From assembly GCA_003554965.1 (NCBI GenBank), contig PWHR01000038.1, positions 15,495-79,494 of the forward strand: a stretch of DNA of 64,000 bases, in the 5' to 3' direction. The position numbers and the translations under genes were made by a program. Source of the stretch: Thermoplasmata archaeon (GTDB lineage Archaea > Thermoplasmatota > Thermoplasmata > Halarchaeoplasmatales > Halarchaeoplasmataceae). Shown here one piece after another: positions 1-62,800 of this stretch; within the stretch, counting starts at the first letter, position 1, and each line of letters starts with the position of its first letter. Under the pieces are notes generated by a model. It ran no database searches. It saw only the letters and a program-made list of their open reading frames with translations, and was not told where the DNA came from.

Positions 1-698
1 CCGGCGATCCTGAACTTAACTCCTTCCATCTCGCCGAAGAGATCGACCAGCTCTGGAAACATCCTTGATTCGTGAAGTAAACCGATATAGGAGAAAGTCG
101 GAACATCATTCGAAGGCGCTTCGTACTCCTCGAAAACCAAAGGTTTGGTGTTCCTCACGATATCTAGCGGCCTATCGGTAACTTCATCAAGATGTTCGTA
201 AAACGGCCTGCTCGTGGTGATTATGTGATCGGCGTTAGATGCTAGCAACTTTTCGAACAATATCGCTCCCTCAGCCAGGAATCGAGAACGATCTTTTTTT
301 ATCATCAGGCCGAAGATCTCGTGAGCATCATAGATTAATTTGAGACCGCGCTTCTTCTTCAATAAAACCCCGGGTAAAAGAGTATCTAGATCATGGCAAT
401 GCACCGCATCGAAATCTACCATATCGTCCAGCTTGACCGCTTCTTTATAACCACGCCACCACCACTTCATATTGCCCAAAAGAGGCCTTTGAGTCATATC
501 TTCCCCAGATCCTGAAAGGTGAATATACCTTACCTCTATACCGTCGTGCTCCTCCATCTCAGGAAGCTCGTTCTCAGTGTCATGCCTGGCCCAAACTAAC
601 ACCACTACTTCATGCCCAGCCTCGGTCAGAGCTTCCGCTTCGTAGTATACGCGGGGATCGTTCCTGAATATCTTCGTCAGGAGCATCAACACCTTCAT
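1..698 (-). CDS. Glycosyltransferase family 4 (GT-B), N-terminal part; runs off the left edge of the window
   Basis: Not in the ORF track. Manual translation from ATG at 698 gives MKVLMLLTKIFRNDPRVYYEAEALTEAGHEVVVLVW..., the typical GT4 N-terminus (DPRV..EA..L...G.EV). Confidence 0.85.
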   Translation of the reverse strand, partial: MKVLMLLTKIFRNDPRVYYEAEALTEAGHEVVVLVWARHDTENELPEMEEHDGIEVRYIHLSGSGEDMTQRPLLGNMKWWWRGYKEAVKLDDMVDFDAVHCHDLDTLLPGVLLKKKRGLKLIYDAHEIFGLMIKKDRSRFLAEGAILFEKLLASNADHIITTSRPFYEHLDEVTDRPLDIVRNTKPLVFEEYEAPSNDVPTFSYIGLLHESRMFPELVDLFGEMEGVKFRIA

Positions 699-737
699 AC
701 TTTCTTCCTCAGAATTTCTTCTTTCACACACATCTGT

Positions 738-1991
738 CTAGACCAGGTCGTAATAACTAATCCACCATTCAGAGTTTTCAAGCCTGCTCTTCAAACCGTC
801 ATCTTCGATCACATCCCACATAAGTAAGTTGTTCTCGAGTTCAGCCCAACCTCCTCTCGGTTTGTCTCCAGCCATGAATGTGATCATATCTCCACCCTCT
901 TCCCGCGCCACGGTTTCGATCTCTTCTACCAGTGTATCATATGTTTTTCTATCTTCATATAACATATCCAGCACTTTGAATTTTGAAACCGTACCTCTCA
1001 AACCAGGTCTTTTACCTATAGCTGCCATGCCTTTCAACTCATCATCTCCTTCCACTGCGACCACCTCCACTAGATGCGGATAAGACAGCATGTGCTTCAC
1101 ATCTCTTCTCTCTCTCCTGAAATGATGATCCACATCTGACAGGACCCTGGAGTAGAGTTCCTCTATATCTTCGATATCTAATTTCTCAGTATCACCGTGC
1201 CTTCTGACTTCAAGATCCGCCTCAACAGGATCCGCAACGTCTCTCTCTTCATCACTACCAAAGAATACCTCATACAATTCTAGAAGTATTTCATCTAGGC
1301 TTTCAGCGTTTATAACCTTCTCGAAGAGCTTGTTGGTCGAATACTCGTTCAATTCCACCTCATGCGTGAAAAGCCTTTCAGCATCTTTTCCATCTTCAGA
1401 AAACCCTAAAAGCTCTCTCAAAGAATACTTTTCAGAACTATCTTCAAAATCGAGGATGATCCTCTTACCGAAAAGATACAGCACTCTCTCCAACCATCCT
1501 CTCTCTTCTAAGATCTCCTTCCCATACTCCCTGATCAGCTTAGCTGGAGAAAGGTACTTTGTATAGACGGGTAAAACTTTAGAACTCCTGCCCTTCTTCT
1601 CATGCACTTTGTGAGTTATACTTCCCTCCTCCACGAAGGCCATCAGAAGTTTTTCTTCTCCTACCTCAAATAGAGATCTTTCCTCTTTCAGCCGCGAAAA
1701 AAGTCCTTCGCCCTGGTGCTCTTCGGCCACAGCTGTATCTCCCCAGACGAAGACCGGTATATTCTCACCTCTCTCTCTATCCACCAATTCCCTAGAAAAC
1801 AGGCGGGTAAAAGCGATCACTTCACCTTCATCTTCTATGAACCAGACCTGTTTTTCCTCAAAATTCGGGAAATCATCATACTTCCAACTCAAATAAGCCT
1901 CGTCGCCCCAACCACCGAAGGCTGAATTCAGCAACTCCAACACCTTTTCCGAGTCGGGGAAACCTCTCTTGACCTCTACGTCTGAACACAT
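738..1991 (-). CDS. GNAT-family N-acetyltransferase (two GNAT-like domains), probably glycan-associated
   Basis: WKY...P N-terminal motif and acetyl-CoA motif DTAVAEEHQGEGLFSRL; lies directly upstream of the GT4 gene on the same strand. Confidence 0.7.
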   Translation of the reverse strand: MCSDVEVKRGFPDSEKVLELLNSAFGGWGDEAYLSWKYDDFPNFEEKQVWFIEDEGEVIAFTRLFSRELVDRERGENIPVFVWGDTAVAEEHQGEGLFSRLKEERSLFEVGEEKLLMAFVEEGSITHKVHEKKGRSSKVLPVYTKYLSPAKLIREYGKEILEERGWLERVLYLFGKRIILDFEDSSEKYSLRELLGFSEDGKDAERLFTHEVELNEYSTNKLFEKVINAESLDEILLELYEVFFGSDEERDVADPVEADLEVRRHGDTEKLDIEDIEELYSRVLSDVDHHFRRERRDVKHMLSYPHLVEVVAVEGDDELKGMAAIGKRPGLRGTVSKFKVLDMLYEDRKTYDTLVEEIETVAREEGGDMITFMAGDKPRGGWAELENNLLMWDVIEDDGLKSRLENSEWWISYYDLV

Positions 1992-2082
1992 GACAGCGGT
2001 TAATCTACTTCCATCTATTAATCTCTAATGGAGAAAACGAGCTGTTTGTAAAGTTTATCCCAACATCAAAAGACTGAACACT

Positions 2083-2523
2083 CTAAACACCAGCTAGCAA
2101 TTCCTCCTTACTCATGGTATTCCGATGTCTTTGATCGGCCCACAATTTCCTGTAATTGTAGAAGTATTCGTGCATACCCAACATGTCGGCTGTGTAGACC
2201 ACTTCATGTTCCTCTATGATATCATACTGTATATTAAGGGGAAGCTCTTCGAAGATATGAACATCGTAGTTTTTTGAGACCGTGTTTACTTCTCTAAATA
2301 CCTTTAACAGCACATCCTTGATATCTACACTTTCATCACTCAAGCCCTTGCAGTCAAAATAAAAATAAGAAGCTCCCGGAACGACCAACGTGAGGTCTAT
2401 ATCGCTTTTAAGATGCTCTTCGTCTTTGACAAAGGAACCGAACAAAAGTACAGCTAACACCCTTTCATCTTTCTCGACCCAAGAGAAATCATTTTTCAAC
2501 TGATCTACTGTTTCCCTATCCAT
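2083..2523 (-). CDS. mntA: Minimal nucleotidyltransferase (MntA-type antitoxin)
   Basis: LFGSFVKDEEHLKSDIDL matches GSx10DxD; 146 aa; overlaps the HEPN gene. Confidence 0.85.
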   Translation of the reverse strand: MDRETVDQLKNDFSWVEKDERVLAVLLFGSFVKDEEHLKSDIDLTLVVPGASYFYFDCKGLSDESVDIKDVLLKVFREVNTVSKNYDVHIFEELPLNIQYDIIEEHEVVYTADMLGMHEYFYNYRKLWADQRHRNTMSKEELLAGV

Positions 2524-3260: not shown

Positions 3261-3472
3261 GAAGAACGGGAAAGAAGACTGTGACTTCCTCACCTCCCTA
3301 ACTGTTGGTTAGGAAGGTGCTTCTGACCAAAGCTGATGAGGTTGCATTCCGCTCGCCGACTTCACGAGAGAGTAGAAATCTCTCAGAGCGGTCAGGTCAT
3401 CGCTTCCAGCTCTGGGGCTAGCCACGAAGCCCCCTGCTCTTGAAAGAGGTCTCGAAAACTTTCCAAGAGCCC
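3261..3472 (-). ncRNA. Predicted TnpB omegaRNA (scaffold overlapping the tnpB 3' end, plus ~20-nt guide from the flank)
   Basis: Stacked hairpins on the minus strand: GCTCTTGGAAAG/CTTTCAAGAGC, GGGGCT/AGCCCC, GAGAGA/TCTCTC and the right-end hairpin ending in TCAC. Guide would be AGUCUUCUUUCCCGUUCUUC. 5' boundary approximate. Confidence 0.65.
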
Positions 3473-4597
3473 GCCGTCCGATATTGTGCGCTCCGTTCTT
3501 GTCCGAATGTATCTCCAGACCGCAGTTGTTGCACCTGAATAAACCCGCACTCCGTTTACCTTTTGCTCCACATCTCGAACAAAGTTGTGATGTCCAGGCC
3601 TCACTCACTTCAACGTAGCCAATACCGTTCCAGCGCGCCTTGTATTCCAACTGTCTTCTCAGCTCGTAATGCGGAAACCTGTGCAATTTCCTGTTCATCG
3701 TTTTACCGTTTTTCTGATCCTGTACTCCTTCCAGATCACCGACAACAATCAATAGATTGTTCTCTTCAGCATACTGAACTATCTTGTTGGTCAACTTATG
3801 AATACAGTCGTTCACCTTATCGTATTCACGCCTGTAGAAACGAGAACGGTTACTGCCGTAGTTTGTTTGTCTTCTAAGGTAGAAAAAATGTGTCTGAACG
3901 TCGCGTATACGGCACCCATCCAGCACCGTATCTCGGTCAGGTAACGCCACTGACGTTACTGGCTGTCTCAAGCCAAGATCGATGCCTAGAACGCCGTCGT
4001 AACGCTCACGCACAAACACATCCTTCTTGATCATGATATGGAGATGAAAGCGGCCGTTCCGTTTCAAGAGTTTGCTCTCACAAATTTCATATTTATCCTT
4101 TATGTCCATGTGAGTCTTTATCGGGACTTTGATCCCACCGTATCTTTGTTTAGACGGTATCTTGAAAAAATAATCTGCAAGGTCAGATTCACAGTCCTTG
4201 AATTCAATCAAATCCTTGCGGAGAAAGAGAGGATACACTTTACCGCCCTTCAGGTAGTCCATGTCAAGGTTCCGTTCGGCCTGCTGCCTGTGTGCACTGT
4301 ACACTCTATCTCCTCCTTTACCTGTATGCAGCCAACGCTGATAGTTTGACCACATCAGTTCAAGCTCTTCTTGCTTTATGTTGGTCAATTCGACAACAGC
4401 CGATTTGACAGTCTTTTCCGCTTTCATCCTTTTATCTTTACAAAATGTTCTGGATACTTAACTGTTTACTAGGGGGGTCAGTAAAAGTTGGTCGCCGATT
4501 CATCACCTACCTAATCTACCGATTAGCGAGGATTAAAACCATCCTCTTCATCCTCGCTTTCGCTACGGATAGGAAGGTGTCTTCTCGGTTACTTCAG
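3281..4597 (-). mobile_element. Non-autonomous IS200/IS605-family (IS1341-like, tnpB-only) insertion sequence
   Basis: Right end GAAG-CACCTTCCTAAC-caaca-GTTAGGGAGGTG-aggaagTCAC (ends at 3281). Related left-end hairpin GAAGACACCTTCCTA...TAGGTAGGTGATGAA (~4499-4585). TTAT lies directly outside the left end (4598-4601). No TSD, no tnpA; removal restores the flanking ATPase reading frame. Confidence 0.85.
3309..4427 (-). CDS. tnpB: TnpB RNA-guided endonuclease (372 aa, rearranged RuvC-II)
   Basis: RuvC-I GIDLG, RuvC-II VVGDL with downstream VSEAWTS, Zn finger CSRC...CNNC, RuvC-III HSDKNGAHNI. Confidence 0.93.
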   Translation of the reverse strand: MKAEKTVKSAVVELTNIKQEELELMWSNYQRWLHTGKGGDRVYSAHRQQAERNLDMDYLKGGKVYPLFLRKDLIEFKDCESDLADYFFKIPSKQRYGGIKVPIKTHMDIKDKYEICESKLLKRNGRFHLHIMIKKDVFVRERYDGVLGIDLGLRQPVTSVALPDRDTVLDGCRIRDVQTHFFYLRRQTNYGSNRSRFYRREYDKVNDCIHKLTNKIVQYAEENNLLIVVGDLEGVQDQKNGKTMNRKLHRFPHYELRRQLEYKARWNGIGYVEVSEAWTSQLCSRCGAKGKRSAGLFRCNNCGLEIHSDKNGAHNIGRRALGKFSRPLSRAGGFVASPRAGSDDLTALRDFYSLVKSASGMQPHQLWSEAPS

Positions 4598-4662: not shown

Positions 4663-5541
4663 ATGAGCTTTCGATTTGTAGTACTCCTGCTTGTTATACA
4701 TCTCTTCGCCGCTCACATCCTGGTGATGGTGGTTTACAACATCGTCATCAATCCGTATGATGCCTCTATCTTCACCAAGATCTTCCCCTACCAGTTCCTA
4801 CACAATCTTTACAGGAGAAAGCCCGAAAGCGCTCTAAAATCCTACTTCTCATTCAGATTGGACATCGACACTAGCGAGGAAAATGTGAAAAAAAATGATG
4901 CTGGAGTACAGAAACTAATCCGCATCGCTGATGATCACGGGGTGCCGATAACTTTCTCTATAGCCACAGAGTACTTACCCTTTTTCTCCGAGAAGACGAA
5001 GGAGATGATAAAGAATGGTGAGCACGCCGTAATAACTCACGGTCACAGCCATGAAGGCTACATAACTGAAAAAGAGCAGGAAGAAGAGCTGCGAAGATCA
5101 AAAAGGATATTGGAGAGTGAATTCCAAACTGAAGTCAAGGGCCTCATCGCTCCAAAAGCAAAGCACGATTTCGAAACGTTGAAAGCCGCGAAAAAGAACT
5201 CTATAGAATACATCTCGGCAGGCTCACTCTCCTATATAAGATACTGGTCCTTTCCGTATCCCTTCAAAAAAAAGGACGTCTGGCTCTTGGGCGGGTGTGT
5301 TCCCAGCGATTATCATCTCTACGAGCGGAAGCGGAAGAGTCCAGAAGAAGCTTTGAGTCTTTGGAAGGAGGCCGTCGAACATAGAGTCAGAAATCAGTGG
5401 TTCATCCAGTTAGAATACCACAATTTTTCGACTTCTGAAGAAAAGTTGAAAGTTTTAGAAGAACTTTTGCGGTACGTAAAAGAAGACACTGAGGCAGTAC
5501 CTATCACTTTAGATGAAATCGTGGAGAGATCGCATACTTGA
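4663..5541 (+). CDS. Polysaccharide deacetylase (NodB/CE4-like) with N-terminal membrane segment
   Basis: RLDID acidic motif, THGHSH metal-binding motif, ITFSI strand, hydrophobic N-terminus. Confidence 0.8.
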   Translation: MSFRFVVLLLVIHLFAAHILVMVVYNIVINPYDASIFTKIFPYQFLHNLYRRKPESALKSYFSFRLDIDTSEENVKKNDAGVQKLIRIADDHGVPITFSIATEYLPFFSEKTKEMIKNGEHAVITHGHSHEGYITEKEQEEELRRSKRILESEFQTEVKGLIAPKAKHDFETLKAAKKNSIEYISAGSLSYIRYWSFPYPFKKKDVWLLGGCVPSDYHLYERKRKSPEEALSLWKEAVEHRVRNQWFIQLEYHNFSTSEEKLKVLEELLRYVKEDTEAVPITLDEIVERSHT

Positions 5542-5562
5542 TCCCTCATTGACATATAAAGT

Positions 5563-6279
5563 CTACTTTTCAATTGTTAGCGATATCGTGACGGTGTAGG
5601 AGTCGCTGTGGATCCTGAAATCCTCTATACCGATCTCGACATCGTCTATATCAAGATGTTTCAATTCGTACGGAAATTTATTGAAATCAGTGACCGATAG
5701 AAATTTCAATCGCAGTATCTTCTTCTCTCCATCTCCAGTTTTTCCTATTGTCTGTACACCTCTGTAGACCCTATCGATATCTTCTACTTCACTTTCGACG
5801 ATATCTTCTACGATCGATACGGCTTCACGAACATCTCTAGGTTTGAAGATCTCCTTTTCTCTACCGTTTTCTAAGTGAGATTTAAGCTTCTCTTCTATCA
5901 TCCTCAAGAATCTTTGGTTGGCCCAAGGTTTTTCAACAAAGCTATGAACGTTAGCTTCGTTTATCGCCTTTTTAGCGGTCTCTAGATCGGGATATCCAGT
6001 GACCAGCACTCTTAGAGTACTAGGATATCTTTTTTTAGCTTGCGCCAGCAGTTCGGTGCCTGTCATATCAGGCATCTTATGGTCAGCTATGATCAGATCG
6101 TATATACCTCTAGCTAGAAGATCTTTAGCTTCTTCAGGATCGCTTGCCGTTGAGACGACGCAGTCAAACCTTTTAGTGTTCTTCAGCATCCTCTCAACAT
6201 CTTTTAAGATCGCTACATCATCGTCTACGACCAATATACTGTAGAGAGAGATCTCTCCTTCCTCCCCTAGAGATGCCAT
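5563..6279 (-). CDS. Response regulator (receiver domain plus C-terminal domain of unknown type)
   Basis: ILVVDDD, ADHKMPDMTG (phospho-Asp), LVTG, EKPW. Confidence 0.85.
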   Translation of the reverse strand: MASLGEEGEISLYSILVVDDDVAILKDVERMLKNTKRFDCVVSTASDPEEAKDLLARGIYDLIIADHKMPDMTGTELLAQAKKRYPSTLRVLVTGYPDLETAKKAINEANVHSFVEKPWANQRFLRMIEEKLKSHLENGREKEIFKPRDVREAVSIVEDIVESEVEDIDRVYRGVQTIGKTGDGEKKILRLKFLSVTDFNKFPYELKHLDIDDVEIGIEDFRIHSDSYTVTISLTIEK

Positions 6280-6419
6280 GATATACCATTCATATTTGAA
6301 GATAAAGACTTTTCGGCTTTTTACTAAATTTCGGCCGTGATAGATATGGTCAGCAGAACACTTGAAGAAAAAATATATATAGAACCTCTTTTTTAGAACC
6401 TGCCAGAGAGGTGCAAACT

Positions 6420-8069
6420 ATGATGTCAGGACAGCAACCTATATTCGTGATGAAAGAAGATACTGAAAGGGAAAGCGGTAAAGACGCTCAGAAGAACAAT
6501 ATAGCAGCGGCGAAAGCTATAGCGGACACTGTACGGACCACGTTGGGGCCGAAAGGCATGGACAAGATGTTGGTGGACAGTTTGGGCGATGTGGTGATCA
6601 CAAACGACGGTGTTTCCATATTGAACGAGATCGATATAGAACATCCCGCGGCTAAGATGCTTGTAGAGGTAGCGGAAACACAGGAAGAAGAATGTGGTGA
6701 TGGAACCACTTCAGCCGTGATAGTTTCAGGTGAACTATTGAAGAAAGCTGAGGATAGGATCGATCAGCTTCACCCTTCAACCATAGCGAACGGATATCGG
6801 ATAGCCTCTGAAAAGGCTTCTGAAATTTTGGAAGATCTAAAGATAGAGATAGACCCTGAGGATAAAAACGAGCTTCAGGATATAGCCTCTACAGCCATGA
6901 CTGGAAAGAACGTAGAGGTGAATAAGGAGCAATTGGCAGAGATAGCTGTGCATGCGGTCCACCACATAACTGAAAAGACCGAAGACGGTTACGTGGTCGA
7001 CACGGACAATATCAAAGTGGAAAAGCAGCCAGGAGCGAGTGTTGACAGTACAGAGATGGTCGATGGAGTGATATTGGATAAAGAAAGACTCCATGACAAT
7101 ATGCCTAATGATATAGAAGATGCTAAGATAGCTCTGCTCAATTCAGCTTTAGAAGTGAAAGAGACAGAGATAGATGCCTCTATAGAGATTACCGATCCTG
7201 ATCAGCTTGAAAAGTTCGTCAATAAAGAGGAAGAGAGCTTGAAAACTATGGTGCAGCAGATAAAGGATGCTGGGGCCAATGTACTCCTATGCCAGAAAGG
7301 TATAGACGATCTGGCTCAACACTACCTTGCAAAAGAAGGCATCTTTGCTATAAGAAGAGTTAAGAAATCCGACATGAAGAAGCTCGCTAAAGCCACTGGA
7401 GGAAGCATAGTCAACAATCTAGAGGATCTTAGTTCAGAGGATCTTGGCACCGCTAAAAGGGTCCATGAAAGGCTCGTTTCCGGTGACAGGATGACGTTCG
7501 TTGAAGGGACTGAAGAAGCCAAAGCCGTTTCTCTCTTGCTGAGAGGCGGAACGGAACATGTCGTTGATGAACTAGAGAGAGCAGTAGAAGATGCTGTAAA
7601 AGTTGTCTCAGTAGCGATCGAGGACGGTGCTGTACTACCTGGAGGAGGCGCCACAGAGATAGAACTATCAAATAGACTCGCAGAGATGTCTGGCAGCATC
7701 GAAGGAAGAGAGCAGATAGCCTTTGAAGATTTCGCGAACAGTCTAGAGATCATCCCGAGGACTATAAGCGAGAATGCGGGACTAGACGGCATCGATGTTC
7801 TCATGAATTTGAATACGTCACATGAAAAAGAGGACAAGAAAGTCTATGGAGTCAACGTTGAGGACGGTGAAGAACCCGAAGATATGTTGGAGAAGGGAAT
7901 AATCGAACCTTACAGAGTGAAGAATCAGGCGATCAAGTCCGCCACCGAGGCCGCCAATATGATCCTGAGGATAGACGACGTTGTAGCCTCCAAAGGCGGC
8001 GATGAAGGAGGAGGCGGCGGTCCACCTGCTGGCGGACCAGGAGCCGGTGGAATGCCACCAGGTATGTAA
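6420..8069 (+). CDS. Thermosome (group II chaperonin) subunit
   Basis: [29 protein letters not shown]-terminal GGMPPGM; ATG at 6420 follows GAGGTG. Alpha versus beta not resolved. Confidence 0.97.
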
Positions 8070-17556: not shown

Positions 17557-18048
17557 ATGATGAAAAAAATCCTCTCGATAATAACAGTTCTACTTATAGT
17601 GACCTTACTTTTGGGTTGTTTAGACGCACCTAGTGTTCCTGGATTTGATTATCCTGATGTGATAGTCTATCATCCTGAAGATAGTGAGGACGAAACTATA
17701 ATAAATCTAAGGGCGATGGAACTGGTGATGTTCGAAAACGTCGTGATTTATATAAATAGCACAGAAAATGATGAGACGAGAAGGGTGGAGAGGAATGATA
17801 CGTTTGGTCCTGAGGTCAGCACTACTCATTCTCATTTCGAGTTGGATATTTTCGTCCGCCAGGAGGAAGAAAGATACAATTTCAATGCTACTTTTGAGCT
17901 GTACCCTGAGGAAAATGTCCCAGAGGAATATCAGGATGAAGAATTGGTATACAGGATAACATTTTATGATGGGGAGGAAGATTATATAACTAGAGACGAT
18001 TTACCATTTACTGAAACTTTGAATCGGATCGAAGAGGATGATAATTGA
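17557..18048 (+). CDS. Acidic lipoprotein of unknown function
   Basis: MMKK plus hydrophobic stretch plus LLLGC lipobox. Confidence 0.7.
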   Translation: MMKKILSIITVLLIVTLLLGCLDAPSVPGFDYPDVIVYHPEDSEDETIINLRAMELVMFENVVIYINSTENDETRRVERNDTFGPEVSTTHSHFELDIFVRQEEERYNFNATFELYPEENVPEEYQDEELVYRITFYDGEEDYITRDDLPFTETLNRIEEDDN

Positions 18049-18353
18049 TGAAAAGACCCCCTCTCTCCTTGACTTTGATCAGTATCACCGTTTTAGTGGT
18101 GGGTATTTTAGCTATTGCCTTCGCAACTGGATGGATTCCCTTAGCGGATATAAGAGGACATTTTGCAACATTCGTATTTTTATTGGTATTTATATCCATA
18201 TTGGCTATAATAGGGGCTATATTTGTCGGGATGTTCATATCGCATCGTATCTTTTCAGATAGTGGATTTACCACTTTTGAAGAGGAGATGCTACAGATGA
18301 GAAAAGATGTCCAGGATATCAAAGAAAGATTGGAAGAAGAGGAAGAAGAATAA
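18045..18353 (+). CDS. Small two-TM membrane protein with C-terminal coiled coil
   Basis: Two hydrophobic helices, then FEEEMLQMRKDVQDIKERLEEEEE; overlaps the lipoprotein stop. Confidence 0.7.
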   Translation: MMKRPPLSLTLISITVLVVGILAIAFATGWIPLADIRGHFATFVFLLVFISILAIIGAIFVGMFISHRIFSDSGFTTFEEEMLQMRKDVQDIKERLEEEEEE

Positions 18354-19349
18354 TCAAGCTAAAGATTCTGGACATATGTCTCTTCTCGAGCAGTTAGCAC
18401 ATTTTCCTTCTCTGTGATGGTTTCTGTGAACTTCTTCGGTATCCAGCTTGTCTCTCATCAGCTCCAGCTTCTCCAATAGTAGTTCCTTTAACGATTCGTC
18501 ATAATCGATATCGAATTCAGTTTCACCATATCTTATCAAACCATAAGGAGGTTTCTCTCCCATATCTTCCTCTATAAGGAGGCAGTACGCCGCTAACTGT
18601 AAAATGTGGGAAAAGAAGGGTCCTTTAGGAACTCTACCCGTTTTCACTTCTACAGGTACGAGTCCCTCATCTTTTTCTAAGATGTAATCAGGTCTTCCTC
18701 TCAATTTATACTTTTCTGAAATAAGAAGATCGCTTTCTTCATCCAAAGCGTCAACATACTTTACGTCACCATCTTCGACTTTCAATTCTTCTCTAGTAGA
18801 TTCAGCCTCGTTCTTGAGGGTGAAAGAATGTTTCAACCAGTAACTGGCTCCGATCAGCCAAGAAAGAGACATAACATGGAGTATCTGGGCAAGAACATCA
18901 TCTTCTCTGAGCAAAGAGAGACTGAAACCCGTTAATATAGTGGCTCCGATTGCTAATATCAAGATGATCCTTTCGAAACTCGTTTTCTCAGCCTTGTCCC
19001 GATGCTTTTCAGTTATTATCAAGAAAAATAAAGCGGCCAATATCCAGATCAATGATAAGGCTCTAAAAACAAAACTAAGCGTCGGCCCAGGGAATATCAA
19101 AGTTAGTCCAAAAAAAGACACCAAAGAAGCGGATATAGCTAGAGCAAAAATTATATTCTCCAAAATATTCAGTTTTTTTTCGCTTTCTTGGACGGACTTG
19201 AGTTTATCTCCCATCTCTTGGTGTTCTTCCTGCCCCTTTTTCAGGTTCTCTCCTTCAGCCTCTTCCTCTTTGCTCAAGCTCAACCACCAGCTCAGAGGAC
19301 AGTAACCGAATTTTTCAACGTCACTAGCAGAGATCCATTCGTCTTCCAT
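18354..19349 (-). CDS. Solo Cas4-family PD-(D/E)XK nuclease with four inserted transmembrane helices
   Basis: ISASDVEKFGYCP (Cys1), G...H, GRPD, VEVKT, QLAAY, KCANCSRRDIC (Cys2-4); about 110 hydrophobic residues between the His and the nuclease core. Confidence 0.88.
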   Translation of the reverse strand: MEDEWISASDVEKFGYCPLSWWLSLSKEEEAEGENLKKGQEEHQEMGDKLKSVQESEKKLNILENIIFALAISASLVSFFGLTLIFPGPTLSFVFRALSLIWILAALFFLIITEKHRDKAEKTSFERIILILAIGATILTGFSLSLLREDDVLAQILHVMSLSWLIGASYWLKHSFTLKNEAESTREELKVEDGDVKYVDALDEESDLLISEKYKLRGRPDYILEKDEGLVPVEVKTGRVPKGPFFSHILQLAAYCLLIEEDMGEKPPYGLIRYGETEFDIDYDESLKELLLEKLELMRDKLDTEEVHRNHHREGKCANCSRRDICPESLA

Positions 19350-19405
19350 TACAGTAGATATATTTGTGTAAAAAAGCTAAATACTTTTGGGTGGTTTCTT
19401 GATCA

Positions 19406-20395
19406 TCAAAACATGTCATCTAGTTCAGAAGGTGAAAAGATCCCTTTTTCAGTTATGAATCCCGAAATGTATTCAGCAGGAGTTACATCAAATGCTGGAT
19501 TCCTTGCAGGTGAGTCTTTAGGAGCGATCAATGAATTGTTGATCATTTTTATCTCCTTTTCATCTCTGTTTTCGATAGGTATATCTCTTCCGGTTTCGGT
19601 AGAGCTGTCATAGGTGGTCACGGGAGCGGCGACGTAAAAGGGGATATCATTCTCCTTTGCAACAACGGCTTTTTCGTAGGTACCTATCTTATTAGCTATA
19701 TCTCCGTTTGATACTATCCTATCAGTTCCGACTATAACGAGGTCGATTTCCCCTCTGAACATGTAGTGTCCTGAAGCGTTATCCACTATGACTGAATGAG
19801 GTATACCTTCATTGTGAAGTTCCCATGCGGTCAATCTAGCTCCTTGGAGCCTGGGCCTGGTTTCGTCAACGAACACATGTATGTCCTTTCCCCGCTCAGA
19901 TGCGATCCTAATCGGAGCCAAGGCGGTCCCGTAATCAACAGTGGCCAAGGCTCCTGCATTACAGTGAGTCAATATGCGGTCCTCGTTCTCTATAAGCTCC
20001 GACCCGTGTTCTCCTATTTTCCTGCATTTTTCGATCACGTTCGAGGCATAATCTTCTGCAGCCTTAACTGGTTTTTCCGCATGGTCTAACATGAATTCTA
20101 CCGCATTAAAAAGATCGTAAGCGGTCGGTCTAGCTGATTTTATGTGCTCAGCCACCTTTTCTATTTTTTTCTCCTGGATAATGGCCTGAGCCATGCCGTA
20201 GGCCGCTGTAACTCCTATCGCTGGAGCCCCCCTCACCATCATTTTCTTGATAGCTTTATGTATATCTTTGTAATCACCAGCAGTGTAGAATTTCAGTTCA
20301 CTAGGCAAAAATCTCTGATCTATCATCTTAACTTTATTATCATCCATCCAAACAGCTTTCAGATCTTTTTCACCTTCTTCCATCTTAACTTTCAT
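19406..20395 (-). CDS. mtnA: S-methyl-5-thioribose-1-phosphate isomerase
   Basis: DQR.LP, VRGAPAIG, RPTA, LTHCNAGALAT, DETRPRLQG, NKIGTY, NPAFDVTP; likely ATG at 20395. Confidence 0.93.
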   Translation of the reverse strand: MKVKMEEGEKDLKAVWMDDNKVKMIDQRFLPSELKFYTAGDYKDIHKAIKKMMVRGAPAIGVTAAYGMAQAIIQEKKIEKVAEHIKSARPTAYDLFNAVEFMLDHAEKPVKAAEDYASNVIEKCRKIGEHGSELIENEDRILTHCNAGALATVDYGTALAPIRIASERGKDIHVFVDETRPRLQGARLTAWELHNEGIPHSVIVDNASGHYMFRGEIDLVIVGTDRIVSNGDIANKIGTYEKAVVAKENDIPFYVAAPVTTYDSSTETGRDIPIENRDEKEIKMINNSLIAPKDSPARNPAFDVTPAEYISGFITEKGIFSPSELDDMF

Positions 20396-21158
20396 CTTCA
20401 CACCTCGCAGAGAGATAAGCATCCCAGAGTTTTGGGACCGTGTTCATCTCTTTCATCTCCTCAGGTTTCACCCATCTGTAATCTTTGTTTTCCCAATTCA
20501 GTTCGGGTTCTCCGTCAGTTTTGAAGATATATGGATTGATCTCCCATATCATTTTTTCTCCCCGGTATCTAACTCTTACTGGTTTACCTTTAGAGACTAA
20601 TTCGGCTTTTAACCCTGTTTCTTCCTCGATCTCTATCAGAGCCTGTTCAAAGGGATCTGAACTTTCCAAATAACCAGAGACGGCTGACCACATCCCCTGA
20701 TAACTACCTACCCTCTCACTCCTTCTCAAGAGTAATACTTGTTGATTCTTCTTCAGAAATGCGGTAACGACCGGTTGTTTATCAACCTCTTTTAGATCCA
20801 ATTTTCCAACTTCACCGTCAAGATCGATCAGGTCGCCTTCTTCGATGAGGTCTATATCGATCTTATCTACAAGAGGGATTTCTGATATTATAGCCCCAGA
20901 AGCAACTATCGTCTCACAACTTTCATTTATGATGGCTTTGGGTGCAGTATCGTTCTTCTTGAGCTGATATATCACGTACGAGCCTACTGTGCTTCCCTTA
21001 CCACCAGGGAAAACGAATATGGAATCAGATATATCTTTTTCTTTGAAAACTTTTCCCGTTTCTGGATCGACATCTCCCAAAAAGGAAACTCTCTCATCCA
21101 CTTTAACAGCCTCACCCTGGACCTTTCCGGCTGAGATGCCCCGACCTTCCAAGATCAT
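20385..21158 (-). CDS. Aconitase X swivel subunit (DUF126, phosphomevalonate dehydratase small subunit) fused to a Nudix domain
   Basis: N-half: SFLGDVDPETG, FPGGKGSTVGS, IISEIP. C-half: VVTAFL...LLLRRS...WSAVSGYLE...EIEEETGL...LNWEN. Confidence 0.85.
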   Translation of the reverse strand: MILEGRGISAGKVQGEAVKVDERVSFLGDVDPETGKVFKEKDISDSIFVFPGGKGSTVGSYVIYQLKKNDTAPKAIINESCETIVASGAIISEIPLVDKIDIDLIEEGDLIDLDGEVGKLDLKEVDKQPVVTAFLKKNQQVLLLRRSERVGSYQGMWSAVSGYLESSDPFEQALIEIEEETGLKAELVSKGKPVRVRYRGEKMIWEINPYIFKTDGEPELNWENKDYRWVKPEEMKEMNTVPKLWDAYLSARCEDES

Positions 21159-56806: not shown

Positions 56807-59800
56807 TTATTTATCATCCTCGTGTTCATCCTCTTTTTTTTCTTCTTTGATATCTTTCTCTGAGTCATTTTCAACTTCATCCTTGCTGTCCCTATACCAC
56901 AAGATGTAGGTTGTAGATAGAGAAATGACAAAGATCATCAACAATATAATCTGGATGATCTGTTGGAGTGAGAGTCCTCCCTCACCATCTTCTTTTTCTT
57001 CTTCTGTAGTAAAGTTCCATGTATCCGAACTGATCTTGTTTTCTTCTTTATCTTCTACCACCACGTACCATTCATAATCAGTATCTTTCTCTAACTCTCC
57101 CCAATCTATCGAGACTATTTCATCTGAACTTATATTTTTTACGCTCTCGATGTGTTCTCTATCATTTTTATCTGATCGGTAGAAAGAAACTTCCATCTCC
57201 TTGTTTTCCGGATGGGTTATATTTACACTCAAGGTCGGTGCTGTGGAAACATTCTGAGCTCCGTCCTTTGGCTTCGGATCTTCTGGTGGGCTTGGCCTTG
57301 CATCTAATACATCTATGCTTTCTCTAAAGAGTACGTGATAATTTTCGTCCCGTATCTCTATCACTTTCTCACCACTTTCTTTGAAATGATGCTCAAATGA
57401 TAGTTCGTGTTCAACAATTTCAGCTGGTATATTCTCTGAATGCATTTTTTCCTCATTTATGTACAGATAAACCTCATGAGACTTTTCCTCTTGGTTCATC
57501 AACACCGCTTCGATTAAGGCAGGTTCCATCCTATAGATATTTTCTGATATGTCTAGTGATTTTGGTTCTATCGTCATCTCATCTACGATCCTCACTTTTT
57601 CTTCATCCTCTCCTATATTAACTATGAATACTCCTTCATCAGAAAACTGATGATTTTTCTCAATAGTTGTAGTCTCATCCCCCTCTAGAACTTCCTCCCA
57701 GGATCTTATCTGGTAGCCTTCTTCATCTTTTATCTCTAATTCGACCTTTTGATACGTCGAAAGATCGTTCTCGATCTCCGCCGTTATCGAAACACTTCGG
57801 CCGGCTTCACTGTAGATAGGATCTACATCTAATGTTTTAACTTCGATTTTTTCATTTAGAGGATATGTTCCAAAGTTCCAAGTATCTGATTTCGCACTGT
57901 TCTCACCATCATCTGCTACTGCATACCAATCATATCTCTCACCATATTCCAACTCATCCCATGTCACTATAGCTCTTTCACCGGATTCTATCCCTTCAAC
58001 TTTACCGATCTCGTTGTCATCGTTAGCACAATAAAAAATTACATCCATAACTTTATTATCTGCATGACTGACGTTCACACTCAATTCTTGGGATGAAGAG
58101 GCAAACTCAAAACCATCTTCTGGACTCGGGTCATATGGATTTTCGGGACCTATCTGCTTTTGAACAGTCTCAAATGACCATGCTCTCGAGGTTGTTTTAT
58201 CCGACTTATCTTCCACTTCTACATACCATCTATAGGTCTCGCCTAGAGAAAGATCCTCCACTTTTATGCTCGCGGCGTCTCCACTTTCGACCTCATTATC
58301 CTTTCCAAGAAGATCGCCATCTTCACGATAAAATCTTACTTCCATCGGGCTTTTTCCGTCATTGAATGCCTCGACTTGCAGAGTCGTATCCGGGCTCACA
58401 TCTGTTTCACCCTTTTCAGGGGAAAATAATTGAACAGTAGGGCTTTGCTGAGAAGCGACGACCGAGACCTCCACAGAATCTTCCACCTGATTACCAGCGT
58501 TGTCGATCGCTTTTACGGTCAGTGTATGTTCTCCATCGGTGAGAGGATCAAAGGTATGGTTCATCACACTGGAACTACTCGCCAAATAGAGCCACTCTTC
58601 TCGAATATCGCTCTTAACCTTGTAATGAGATATCCCTGAGTACTCATCCTCAGCATACCACTGTAGGAAGACGTTAGAAGTCACCTCGGATCCTTCTTTT
58701 GGCCTAATTATCTCAAGGGAAGGTGGATCTGTATCTTTGACCTCTATGTTTCTTATGACTTCGTTTTTATCCTCATTCCCTTCTCTATCTTCAGCTCTCA
58801 CAGCGAACTTATGTTCACCTATCTCTTCCACTGATATATCAGCCCATGTTTCCTCAGTAGTTTCTATAGTATCCTCAAAACACATATCTCCTTCTTCCAC
58901 ATGATATATATTGTAAGTTATAGGTTCAGAATGATCTGTGGCAGGAAGCCATTCTAGGGAGACTCGTTTTTCAGAATGATCTGAAACATAAAGGGATCTA
59001 AGCCCGTCAAACTCCGGTGGTCTTTCGTCCTCTAGCTCTATAGTTTTGACATCAGTTTCGTTGTTTTCTAAACCTAATGAATTAACCGCTGTGACTTTGA
59101 TCCTGTGCTCGGATCGAGGCTCCAAGTCTCTCAGTACGATGGAATCGTTTTTTGTGCTTTTTCTCCAATTAGAATGATCGAAGTCCTCTACTTCTTTTGC
59201 GACGTGCACACGGTAAGTTATCGGTTTTGAGAAGTCTTCAGCAACATTCCACTCCAGTTCTACAGAGTTGTTAGAGAGAATCGTATATTCACTTATACCT
59301 TCAAAATCAGGTGGATTCACGTCCTTCACGTTTATCTTTTCTTCCTGATAAGCCCTTGCTCCTGTCTGATTATGGGTCACCTTCAAAATAACATCATGGT
59401 GACCTACCTCTTCGAATACGTACTCAACGTTCTGTCCATATCTCTTTTCCTCTCCAAAGATCCATGTCCAGTTGAGGTCAGTTGATGTACTGGACCCGTA
59501 AAAGCTGGTCTCCTCGCCTAGTACAGGAGATTCGGAGTAAGAGAAGTTTACGTATGGAGGTACTGATTGCGTAGTCACCTTCCTTCTTCTATCAAAATCT
59601 GGAAATGGGGTCGAGAATATCTCTATGATCGAAGCATCAGGGAGATAATTCTGAAAGAGTCTAAAATCATCAAGGACTATGCTTTCAAGATATTCTGCTA
59701 TCTTCAAAGGCGAAGAACTCGAATTCAACGGCTCCATTTCTTTTAATTTAAAAGAATCAGTATAGTTCCAAAGATCCTCGTCACTGCTGATATTTACATC

Positions 59801-62800
59801 TCTGTTCGCGAGGGTTATATTGAGATATGATAGTTTTTCGTCTACCCGCTCGTAGCGGACACCGATGAAAAACCATTCATCGAACTCTACATCCTCAGCA
59901 TGGGTGGTTACTGTCCGTGTATCATCATTCCAGAGTTTTACAGATAATTCATCCTCCTCAAAACTCACTTGCCAAGAACCGTTTTTCTGGAACAGTTCGC
60001 CTTCAACCGGATCATCTTTTAATTTTATCAAAGAAGATAATGAGAATTCTTCACTATCATCAGTGACGTTCAGACTCGAACAGCTAGGGACTCTCATCAT
60101 ACCTGATGATCCTTCTGATGATCCTTCGAATCCCGCATAATTCCCGTGGGTGCGCATCTCTCCATCATGGTCTTTTATCGAATAGTTCTCTTTCAATAAG
60201 GCAGTATTTTCATTTTTGCTTTCATCTGAAACTTTGTTGGAATCAACACGGTTAAAATCGTAATGTGCTGCCTGCCATTTCTCGATGACTTCTTCTTTTT
60301 CCACATAGATCATCCTAGGTTCTTCGATTGAAAAATCGTTATCGAGCTCTCCATGTGAATACTCATCCTCTATTGAGATATATCTCAAATATCCCCAGCC
60401 GTCTCCTTTATTTTCAATTATCATAGGGGTCGCAGTTTCGCCTGTTTGAAAGGTGTAGAATTTTCCAGTATCGTTTTCATGAAAGGATAAACAGGATATC
60501 GTCCTTCCAGAGAAAACGGTTTCATTCTCTAATACAGTCCATACTCTCTGTCCATCAGTTTCTACTTCTGCTCTTTTCAGTGAGCTGTGATCTTCTATCC
60601 ACGAAACTGCGAGATCATCTTCATGCTTGGAAAGGACTACCTCAGAGATGGTATCTACAGTTTCTCTGACAATATACATTTCACTTTCCTTTAAATGGTC
60701 GTTAGAGGCCTCTATATCGACGATCACAGTTTCGTTGTAGCAATCTTCTTCCCCACCATCTTCGAATTCAACATTTCTTATAAAAGAAAGAGCTATATTT
60801 TCATTATTAGATATCACTGAAGGTGAGGAAGTGGCTGACATCCTTTCTTCAGTATGCCATACTTCCTCGACGCCTCTATTTTCTTGGGAAAAATCTCCCC
60901 TGATCAAACCGATGGTCCCCTCCGTGGTTGATCCTGTCTCAAAAATATCGAAGCCCACTTCTCCTCCTCTATATGAGATGTGAAACTCCTCGTCGTTCAA
61001 GCAGACATCATAATTGTTTATAGGCCCATCTTCATAAGAGTAGTTCAAGATCGGACTGGACCATCCTTCTGTTGGAGACCATGTTCTAGCCTTTATGGAG
61101 CTTTTCTCAAAAAAATCTTCACTGCAAGTTTCTTCGCCTATCTTTTCATCCACACCCATATAAAAAATGATCATCTCCTCACCGTTTCTCTTCATCAACT
61201 GGGGATCATATACCGATGCAGGCACGTCTTGGATGACTGATCTTTCTCCCCAACCATCTTCATCATAGACACGGGTATGTAGATCAGAAGTTGCGTCGCT
61301 GTTCGAAGTGGAGATCTCGCTCCATACAGCCATACCTGCTTCATCGTTCAAAAATGCAATCTCTGGATCGGAATCTGGAGACACGTAATCTCCCAGCCTG
61401 ACGACTCCTTCGGGAGTATTATCTTCTAGCTCTGTTTCGAACTCATCACTTACTCCATCCTGTCTTGTGAAGAGTCTATCTGTACTGAACACTTCTCTTT
61501 TTTTCATATCTTCTATATCTCTTGTCCTCTGGACTATATCAGAATCGATATCCACGCTGAAGAGAGGCCACGACTCAGATCTTTCCCAAAGTCCCCAGAG
61601 CGCCTCTGCCGTTACTTCGAATTCCCCATTTAAGTCTAGACCCCTTTCCATAGAAGGTATTTCGATACCTATATCGAGTTCACATATTAGTTTACCCTCT
61701 ATTCTAGCTAATCCTGCACCTGCTTCTGCATAGGGCCCTCCACCGAATTCGATCTCCATATCAATAGGAACATCCCCATCGGGAAGTTCTGGGTTGACCC
61801 TTTCTTCTCCATGGTCGTAGGAGAGGGAGCCTATCTCGAATTCTACCTCCATACCGCTTTCTATTCCAGCCGTCAGTCCCGCCTCTCCGATCCCTATAGA
61901 TTTTAGAGGTATGTCTATACTGATCTCGCTCTCGAATTCTAGTTCTAAACTACCTTCCGTTTTGATCTCTAAATCATTCGGATCGACGATCATATCTAGA
62001 TGTAAATTGATTGAGGTTCCGATCTCAGATTCTCCACTGTAATCCAATGTATTACCAAAATCACTTTTAAACTCTCCAGAGCCCATATGATCTTCAGCTA
62101 CATCCGTAGTGAAGCTCAATAATCTGGTCTCGACAGTGTTTTCATTATCGATGATCAACTCTTGATCTGGCCAGGCCTCAAGTTCGAATCCGTATGCTCC
62201 TCCAAAAAAGTCCGCGAGCTTATTTATGTTTGAATCGAGTATGGAAGAGATGTTTATCATATCAAGGGCCTCATCAGCCTGAACGTCCGGTTCATACTCC
62301 AGCTCCCATCCAGTGTAACGCTCCTCGTCTCTTTCATTCTCTATAGTCAATTCTCCGGAATGTTCCATCATATGATATGCCCAATCGGGCATATCCATGA
62401 TGTTCACTTCTTTCTCGTTATCATATATTGTTTCATCTTGATCAGAGTCGAATGGATTTTCGTATGAATTCCTATGTTCGTTATAGAGCAACGGCTCGGC
62501 CTTGACTTCACAGTCTTTCTCTGCATCACTGACTTTCATGGTCCGATTCCAGAAAGCTACATCTTCTTCGGTATGATCTATTTTTGGTCTTTCAGTGAGA
62601 TCGTTATCTCCGATCGATTGGTTTTCAAGACTTGGAGAGGTAAAATTTATCGCCCTATACGGCAGATCTTCGTGCCCCTTAAATACATAAGTATTTTTCA
62701 GCTCATTTTCATCGGACAATATCGGTAGAAGATCATCTGGGATATGGAAAAAGACCTCATTTGAGTCTTCTATCTCGTAGGTGGAGGTCAGTCCATATCG

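Follow-up and report, generated by a model that had tools for sequence, protein, structure and literature searches.

The window analysed in this study is a stretch of 64,000 nucleotides from a Thermoplasmata archaeon (contig PWHR01000038.1), and it carries on its minus strand a gene for a protein of 331 amino acids (aa) in which the two parts of a Cas4-type nuclease are separated by four predicted transmembrane (TM) helices. The gene product is best explained as a membrane-tethered, cytoplasm-facing nuclease of the Cas4 family that works outside CRISPR, with DNA ends as its likeliest substrate and a housekeeping role. A rough probability of 0.55 is given to this reading, the functional part of which we infer. 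The features of the gene are as follows:

18354..19349, minus strand: whole gene, encoding the Cas4-family nuclease embedded in the membrane, 331 aa from an ATG start to a TGA stop
19161..19349, minus strand: predicted cytoplasmic N-terminal segment, residues 1-63, with the codons of the first cluster cysteine, C17 (19299-19301), and of the metal-ligand histidine, H43 (19221-19223)
19014..19160, minus strand: transmembrane hairpin 1, residues 64-112 (TM1 64-85 and TM2 91-112, joined by a short outer loop at 86-90)
18972..19013, minus strand: basic loop joining both hairpins, residues 113-126, placed in the cytoplasm by its charges
18834..18971, minus strand: transmembrane hairpin 2, a copy of hairpin 1, residues 127-172 (TM3 127-146, outer loop 147-152, TM4 153-172)
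18357..18833, minus strand: stalk helix and PD-(D/E)XK Cas4 core, residues 173-331, supported by profiles, alignment and fold
Minus strand: catalytic codons of the core, D221 (18687-18689), E234 (18648-18650), K236 (18642-18644), Q251 (18597-18599) and Y255 (18585-18587)
Minus strand: cysteine codons of the core, C256 (18582-18584), C317 (18399-18401), C320 (18390-18392) and C326 (18372-18374)
19350..19405, minus strand: AT-rich spacer of 56 bp 5' of the ATG; a TTTTTTA run lies about 27 nt ahead of the start

The Cas4 motifs of the protein comprise C17, H43, P220-D221, E234-x-K236, Q251-x3-Y255 and C317-x2-C320-x5-C326. Across 46 homologues with at least 30% identity, C17, D221, K236, Q251, Y255, C317, C320 and C326 are invariant, as are Y16 and G39 of the N-terminal segment, and H43, E234 and C256 are conserved in at least 90%, bearing out the statement in the original prediction, made from the bare sequence, that all Cas4 hallmarks are intact. 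Both Pfam PDDEXK_1 (PF12705; E-value 1.9e-14, 54.6 bits against a cut-off of 22) and Cas_Cas4 (PF01930; 2.2e-9, 38 bits against a cut-off of 22.7) match the protein, and the NCBIfam equivalog model for cas4 (TIGR00372) scores 88 bits with a cut-off of 65, the interruption of the domain dividing the match in two. The nearest solved chain by sequence is 4ic1 (E 1.9e-4).

The structural evidence agrees with the profiles. An AlphaFold2 monomer model built from the 46-homologue alignment (mean predicted local distance difference test score, pLDDT, of 86.5; predicted template modelling score 0.75; pLDDT of 94 at residues 11-20) contains helices at residues 34-85, 89-115, 119-145 and 151-189, followed by the alpha/beta core. 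In this model, the His43 helix is continuous with TM1, TM4 is continuous with a stalk helix that reaches the core, and the N-terminal segment is packed against the core. A Foldseek search with the model returned the type I-C Cas4 8d3l (chain I) as top match (E 9.9e-6, root-mean-square deviation 2.7 over 138 columns), followed by SSO0001 (4ic1, E 3.6e-4) and Cas4-Cas1 (7mi5, E 5.2e-4), with Dna2, AdnAB, ACE1, MGME1 and Exo5 among ranks 9-40. Profile scores, catalytic motifs, the four cluster cysteines and the fold all place the protein in the Cas4 family. With the cluster-type cysteine set and the nuclease motifs intact, binding of a [4Fe-4S] cluster and metal-dependent activity are predicted. 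A prediction of a two-copy complex, run without controls, gave no answer for or against a homodimer (score 0.00 against a mark of 0.42).

The four hydrophobic segments have Kyte-Doolittle peaks (19-residue windows) of 2.27, 2.2, 1.74 and 1.27, and the four strings named in the original prediction were located at residues 64-84, 98-110, 126-146 and 160-172. Hydropathy and the AlphaFold2 helices agree that four TM helices lie between the Cys/His segment and the core, as had been claimed. The claim that these helices are a duplicated hairpin was also upheld: with profiles from 52 family members (hairpin 1 taken as residues 56-118 and hairpin 2 as residues 119-180), hhalign aligned the two over 60 ungapped columns with a probability of 99.0 and an E-value of 9.6e-18. 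Reversed-profile controls reached probabilities of 7.4 and 8.4 (E about 4e-3). The four helices are two copies of one hairpin, and the duplication is not a composition effect.

Basic flanks and loops of membrane proteins lie on the cytoplasmic side, according to the positive-inside rule. In the 46 sequences, lysine and arginine together average 3.8 residues in the flank before TM1, 2.7 in the middle loop and 3.8 in the flank after TM4, compared with 0.6 and 0.5 in the TM1-TM2 and TM3-TM4 loops of about six residues. By the rule, this distribution places both soluble parts in the cytoplasm, with hardly anything exposed outside; with the nuclease on that side, any action at the cell boundary (uptake or viral entry), which had been suggested alongside membrane-anchored chromosome repair, would take place on the inner face. 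The single terminal hydrophobic helix of each split half and the presumably cytoplasmic TRAM domain that some relatives have behind the core (both described below) agree with this topology. Conservation differs strongly along the protein: identity to the query is 35% in the membrane part, 51% in the N-terminal segment and 59% in the core, and columns conserved in at least 90% of sequences number 2 of 109, 11 of 48 and 34 of 136, respectively. Since the membrane part is the least conserved region, this is the pattern expected of a part that evolves as an anchor, not as a channel or an enzyme.

Far from being an isolated case, the gene belongs to a phylum-wide family. A word-based search returned 1166 relatives auto-annotated as Cas4 or PD-(D/E)XK nuclease, confirming the suspicion that homologues were already catalogued. 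Nearly all of the best 120 are about 330 aa long with full query coverage (P0066, at 214 aa and 64% coverage, is a shorter relative among them), and their source names, where given, are Natronoplasma, Saliniplasma, Thermoplasmata and 'Methanobacteriota', all Thermoplasmatota. An exhaustive search of 50% representatives gave 1222 matches, 77 of them at E<=1e-30. Among the sampled Thermoplasmatota, matches at E<=1e-5 occur in 283 of 401 genomes (4 of these at E>1e-10), in 177 of 262 high-quality genomes and in 122 of 162 genera. On viral contigs, 64 pattern matches were obtained, none of them a relative.

Helices ahead of the core were counted in the best 150 representatives, in 146 of which the core could be placed. 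Four helices were found in 38, two in 25, eight in 15, one in 52 and none in 11 (fragments), and the remaining five have 3, 3, 5, 6 or 7. Four of these five are truncated and lack the N-terminal Cys segment, and the fifth is a 471-aa protein whose count is unresolved. Therefore, complete fused proteins have 2, 4 or 8 helices only, and the reasoning that an even helix number keeps both nuclease halves on one side is borne out, with 78 of 83 multi-helix representatives at these three numbers. Twenty loci with partial matches encode 2-helix forms of about 275-320 aa, 4-helix forms of about 400 aa and 8-helix forms of 500-650 aa, with a match to a hidden Markov model (HMM) of the N-terminal segment in the same frame in 19. 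Among the 15 eight-helix representatives, the hairpin HMMs recognise four modules in 11 and the best-model order h1, h2, h1, h2 in 4 of the 15, which hints that the eight-helix form may have arisen by doubling of a 4-helix unit. A frame of 899 aa (L045), considered as a domain fusion, was rejected as a spurious high-GC frame extension of a real 2-helix protein of about 275 aa.

The 52 one-helix representatives belong to a split form of the enzyme encoded by two genes. Their gene, here gene B, encodes a protein of about 175 aa with an N-terminal hydrophobic helix, a basic patch, the Cas4 core and three C-terminal cysteines, lacking the N-terminal Cys and His; it originates from Chloroflexota, with at least 599 pattern matches. 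In 69 of the best 80 of these loci (Anaerolineae, Thermoflexia, Caldilineae, Chloroflexia and Herpetosiphon), a small same-strand open reading frame (ORF), gene A, lies upstream of gene B, mostly directly adjacent. Gene A carries the missing Cys/His segment (HMM E-values as low as 7.9e-10), and its product has a single hydrophobic helix at its end, so that the split-form enzyme is predicted to consist of two membrane-anchored halves. With a gene B query (P0200), matches at E<=1e-10 were obtained in 93 of the 301 Chloroflexota genomes that were sampled. Additionally, five Thermoplasmatota genomes with weaker hits were inspected; four hold the split form and one a fused 2-helix form. A fifth cysteine, C256 (18582-18584), directly follows the tyrosine of QxxxY; it has an equivalent in all split forms, is conserved in at least 90% of the fused forms and likewise of the gene B proteins, which are without the N-terminal Cys in the same chain, and might act as a cluster ligand.

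These data bear on whether the hydrophobic segments span a membrane at all, as the protein could instead be soluble, with these helices packed into a buried bundle or used for oligomerisation. TM4 reaches only moderate hydrophobicity and the helices were called from hydropathy and the AlphaFold2 model, which leaves some room for such a soluble protein; it is nonetheless extremely improbable given that the four segments, of 20-22 residues each, show a charge pattern of the positive-inside kind, and given the restriction of complete proteins to 2, 4 or 8 helices, and split halves that each have one terminal hydrophobic helix with basic residues toward the soluble part.

The original prediction of no cas1, cas2 or array within 64 kb was correct: PADLOC, applied to the Cas4 ORF, two neighbours and 56 further ORFs, found no Cas1 or Cas2 in the window, and Tandem Repeats Finder gave just 3 tiny rows and no CRISPR array. 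The term 'CRISPR-less' needs correcting for the genome as a whole, in which a separate contig of 2951 bp (C9, locus L001) carries cas6-cas1-cas2:

L001, 209-535, minus strand: cas2-like gene, 108 aa
L001, 507-1484, minus strand: cas1, 325 aa (PF01867, 6.8e-69)
L001, 1521-2207, minus strand: cas6-like gene, 228 aa, as read from its sequence
L001, 2197-2931, minus strand: putative HEPN-like gene with an R-x4-H motif, 244 aa, likewise as read from its sequence

No cas4 adjoins cas1 at this locus, and the contig ends 208 bp past cas2, a point at which the assembly may have been interrupted by an array. A sub-cut-off match to the Cas4 model (8e-5) elsewhere in the same genome (L003, contig C11, 60207-60467) lies inside a frame of 946 aa that may be an AddB/Dna2-type helicase-nuclease.

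The membrane protein could accordingly be thought of as this organism's adaptation Cas4 acting in trans, trimming prespacers for the cas1-cas2 on the other contig, perhaps on entering DNA. It exceeds the NCBIfam Cas4 equivalog cut-off, and no other Cas4 above cut-off was found in its assembly (93% complete, 101 contigs), although with such an assembly and a cas contig of 2951 bp a canonical cas4 may simply be unassembled. The wider family renders a role in trans very unlikely. Cas1 is present in 98 of the 401 sampled Thermoplasmatota genomes, and of 50 genomes with the full-length membrane form, 28 have no Cas1 match and 22 have one. Cas1 neighbourhoods were fetched for 20 of these 22 genomes, and in 18, including the sister genus (G096), the Cas1 locus holds its own canonical Cas4 (about 165-230 aa) or a Cas4-Cas1 fusion; phmmer seeded with canonical Cas4s found none at the Cas1 locus in G230 and G164. 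As to sensitivity, the membrane-family core HMM caught canonical Cas4s in 5 of the 20, and phmmer seeded from those caught them in 18.

A tree computed from 99 core domains over 141 columns (quick search of IQ-TREE with support from the Shimodaira-Hasegawa-like approximate likelihood ratio test, SH-aLRT, only) divides 85 membrane forms from 14 canonical Cas4s by a branch of length 2.22 with an SH-aLRT of 100. The membrane clade itself is poorly resolved, with 46 of 96 inner branches open and helix-number classes intermingled, and the order of helix-number changes is not recoverable from these 141 columns. The suggested phylogeny of TM-containing Cas4s sets the membrane forms apart from canonical Cas4 and leaves the 2- and 4-helix classes mixed. 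An adaptation Cas4 is recognised by linkage to cas1/cas2 or fusion to cas1 and by co-occurrence with CRISPR; no cas gene was found in the window or beside the 50 homologues, and the genome counts above speak against co-occurrence. The family is separate from CRISPR-adaptation Cas4, and the gene falls under the definition of a solo-Cas4 and outside that of an adaptation Cas4. Among the Thermoplasmatota that carry the membrane Cas4, Cas4-Cas1 fusion genes were seen at L141 (G168; 637-2379, minus strand) and L142 (G305; 5235-6890, plus strand), together with several further Cas1 frames of 550-580 aa.

Around the gene, the window holds housekeeping genes: it encodes an aldo-keto reductase that includes a ferredoxin domain, two small unassigned ORFs, AcnX subunits and Trm5/TYW2, with an IF-2B-family isomerase gene 57 bp upstream on the same strand and, nearby, a TP_methylase-family (PF00590) methylase that we take to be diphthine-synthase-like. 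The 56-bp spacer is possibly the gene's own archaeal promoter, which would give a leaderless mRNA. At the 50 homologue loci, the immediate neighbours are housekeeping genes that vary between clades and are syntenic within them: IF-2B in the window's own family, PF14811 with GlmS in one family, ribonucleotide reductase in another family, ribosomal protein S2 next to the 400-aa forms and L15e next to four 8-helix forms, with Orc1/Cdc6, GyrB and the primase large subunit as single cases. No cas or defence genes occur among these immediate neighbours. Pfam and NCBIfam searches that covered 93 immediate neighbours and, in a second round, 24 unexplained ones and 3 window ORFs revealed no conserved archaeal partner. 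A convergent 102-aa ORF on the plus strand (18045-18353), its stop abutting that of the Cas4 gene, has two hydrophobic stretches and an acidic tail and gave no Pfam, NCBIfam or PADLOC match; the sister genus (L005) has a 105-aa ORF at the same relative place.

This setting also informs the alternative of a stand-alone innate defence nuclease, in which the helix module would respond to a disturbed membrane or to DNA being translocated as a virus enters or cells conjugate, and would trigger cleavage of the incoming DNA. The model and the charges hold the nuclease at the inner membrane face, where such a device would be needed; another Cas4-family enzyme, ACE1, is reported to take part in immunity with Argonaute (structures 9iab and 9iac), and Kiwa and Zorya are described as membrane-embedded sensors paired with DNA-directed effectors. 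In PADLOC-DB 2.0, the sole matches other than Cas4 and Cas1-fusion models were to DruK models of Druantia, at 4e-10 or weaker, and the window neighbours gave nothing above generic ATPase and methylase matches; neither a known-system model nor defence neighbours mark the locus. The family is, however, conserved by vertical descent and keeps synteny with ribosomal and metabolic genes rather than lying in variable islands, it reaches 122 of 162 sampled genera, unlike patchily distributed defence genes, its helix region is nearly without conserved polar residues (the 2 of 109 columns above), and no viral-contig copies were found. Combined, these observations make a defence function unlikely.

A membrane-tethered housekeeping nuclease remains the preferred explanation. 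Under it, the two nuclease parts split by the four membrane helices would reunite on the cytoplasmic side, giving a constitutively present, metal-dependent nuclease at the inner membrane face. Its substrate would be nucleic acid that is single-stranded or has free ends, most probably DNA ends that arise at or arrive at the membrane, on which it may carry out 5' resection or flap cutting, as proposed by likeness to other Cas4, AddB and Dna2-type domains. The role would be housekeeping repair, recombination or processing of incoming DNA, not trimming of CRISPR spacers. DNA-end processing is considered likeliest because the characterised relatives act on DNA and the gene behaves as a vertically inherited core gene.

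In 53 of the 80 Chloroflexota loci of the split pair, a translin-like gene of about 210 aa is present, mostly directly upstream on the same strand (e.g., L084:529-1161, plus strand); it scores 266 bits with NCBIfam NF011160, under the cut-off of 291, and 5e-5 with Pfam Translin. NAD kinase is found in 20 loci, a RecN-like SMC_N gene in 17 and a single-stranded DNA-binding protein (SSB) in 9, the gene A and B pair often lying between the translin-like gene and NAD kinase. Proximity of the RecN-like and SSB genes is a weak pointer to possible DNA transactions. DUF3467 also recurs near the split pair (loci L054-L133).

Several points weigh against the preferred reading. The organism's own cas1-cas2 is without a cas4, and therefore a trans adaptation role is possible in this organism, whose assembly offers no second Cas4. 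The hydrophobicity of TM4 is moderate (peak 1.27), and a search of sequencing runs found the locus in DNA runs and no RNA run. The cellular process named here is a guess, because no partner gene is conserved across clades. The nadK-recN pair is common in bacteria, and the nearness of the RecN-like gene may be plain synteny. TRAM, expected to be a cytoplasmic nucleic-acid-binding domain, follows the core in four 8-helix proteins of one archaeal clade (cut-off 21 bits), two stretches being present in each of the last two:

L036:2079-3884, minus strand: TRAM-bearing 8-helix protein, 26.5 bits
L038:2142-3887, plus strand: TRAM-bearing 8-helix protein, 41.6 bits
L048:1964-3901, minus strand: TRAM-bearing 8-helix protein, 57.1 bits
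P0184: TRAM-bearing 8-helix protein, 57.2 bits

With these TRAM fusions and the translin-like neighbour, RNA or single-stranded substrates would be in no worse agreement than DNA ends. The enzyme might then work at the membrane on RNA or on another nucleic acid in single-stranded form, for example in the turnover of membrane-associated transcripts, which the frequency of translation genes as neighbours would also suit. Such a role is nevertheless judged distinctly unlikely: the characterised matches by fold and sequence (Cas4, AddB/AdnAB, Dna2, Exo5 and MGME1) act on DNA, TRAM is confined to the one clade, and the translin-like gene was found in none of the archaeal loci examined, nor in the window.

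A bolder possibility, which is held tentatively and considered doubtful, is that of a two-phylum Fe-S nuclease family whose site is assembled across the hairpin (from two polypeptides in the split forms) and whose helix module couples membrane events to cleavage. If true, the helix module (2 to 4 to 8) would not be a passive anchor, and the membrane events in question would be DNA translocation, virus entry or envelope stress; the family would then amount to a system for surveillance or uptake processing that is gated by the membrane, independent of CRISPR and of a hitherto undescribed kind.

Cas4-type Fe-S nucleases have so far been regarded as soluble enzymes that serve CRISPR adaptation, DNA repair or mobile elements, and many solo copies are known. 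The protein of the window shares with canonical CRISPR Cas4 (TIGR00372/PF01930; 4ic1, 8d3l) the core motifs, the N-terminal Cys with C-x2-C-x5-C and the His on an N-terminal helix, and differs from it by an insert of 109 residues, made of four membrane helices, that separates the His helix from the core, by having no cas neighbourhood and by its separate long branch. It resembles Solo-Cas4 (Hudaiberdiev et al. 2017, PMC5704561) in being a Cas4-family gene away from CRISPR-cas loci with an unassigned cellular role. The Solo-Cas4 of M. mazei is reported to bind a [4Fe-4S] cluster and to cleave DNA in the presence of Mn/Mg (PMC12501428); unlike the described solo-Cas4s, which are soluble, the window protein is predicted to be membrane-integral. 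The nuclease fold is also common to the Fe-S PD-(D/E)XK domains of AddB/AdnAB, Dna2, Exo5 and MGME1 and of the Argonaute partner ACE1, with which a shared chemistry of DNA-end processing may be inferred. These enzymes are soluble and helicase-fused or partnered, and we know of none that is membrane-integral. The membrane-anchored competence nucleases EndA (Streptococcus) and NucA (Bacillus) have a beta-beta-alpha-Me fold without an Fe-S cluster and face outward; the likeness to them lies in a membrane-held nuclease for DNA crossing, and the difference in the cytoplasm-facing Cas4 core.

Full-text literature searches returned no description of a membrane-spanning Cas4, the supplementary tables of PMC5704561, which may list these sequences, lying outside their coverage. 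None was found either in the consulted portions of the papers on Cas4 phylogenomics from 2017, archaeal 'dark matter' and JCVI-syn3.0 (PMC5704561, PMC4158269, PMC13621843) or of PMC12501428; in the main text of PMC5704561, supplements aside, 'transmembrane' occurs 0 times and 'membrane' once, in an unrelated gene name. The enzyme family is known and its sequences are public under the name Cas4, while no earlier description appears to exist of the membrane-integrated, modular, split architecture or of its independence from CRISPR.

Many of the Thermoplasmatota proteins auto-named 'CRISPR-associated protein Cas4', indeed a large share, are thus membrane-integrated enzymes kept independently of CRISPR, and the Chloroflexota gene B proteins carry the same name, so that counts of Cas4 used as a proxy for CRISPR adaptation capacity are inflated in both phyla. 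The series of split, 2-, 4- and 8-helix forms offers a natural system for cofactor-site assembly across a hairpin and for membrane-module growth by duplication. A cytoplasm-facing membrane nuclease is a candidate for processing DNA that enters at or is attached to the membrane, in lineages (some with small genomes, as genome sizes suggest) that have few recognised defence or uptake genes.

Three further ORFs of the window, all on the minus strand, deserve mention. A giant ORF of 2383 aa (56807-63958) has no PADLOC match. An ORF of 372 aa (3309-4427) matches Cas12f/Cas12u (TnpB-like) models at 8e-27 and, because no array lies nearby, is probably an IS200/IS605-type TnpB, not a CRISPR effector. 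At 20385-21158, the swivel (small subunit) domain of AcnX, which is presumably the archaeal mevalonate-pathway dehydratase, is fused to a NUDIX hydrolase domain; the gene overlaps the upstream AcnX large-subunit gene, and the fusion is unusual.

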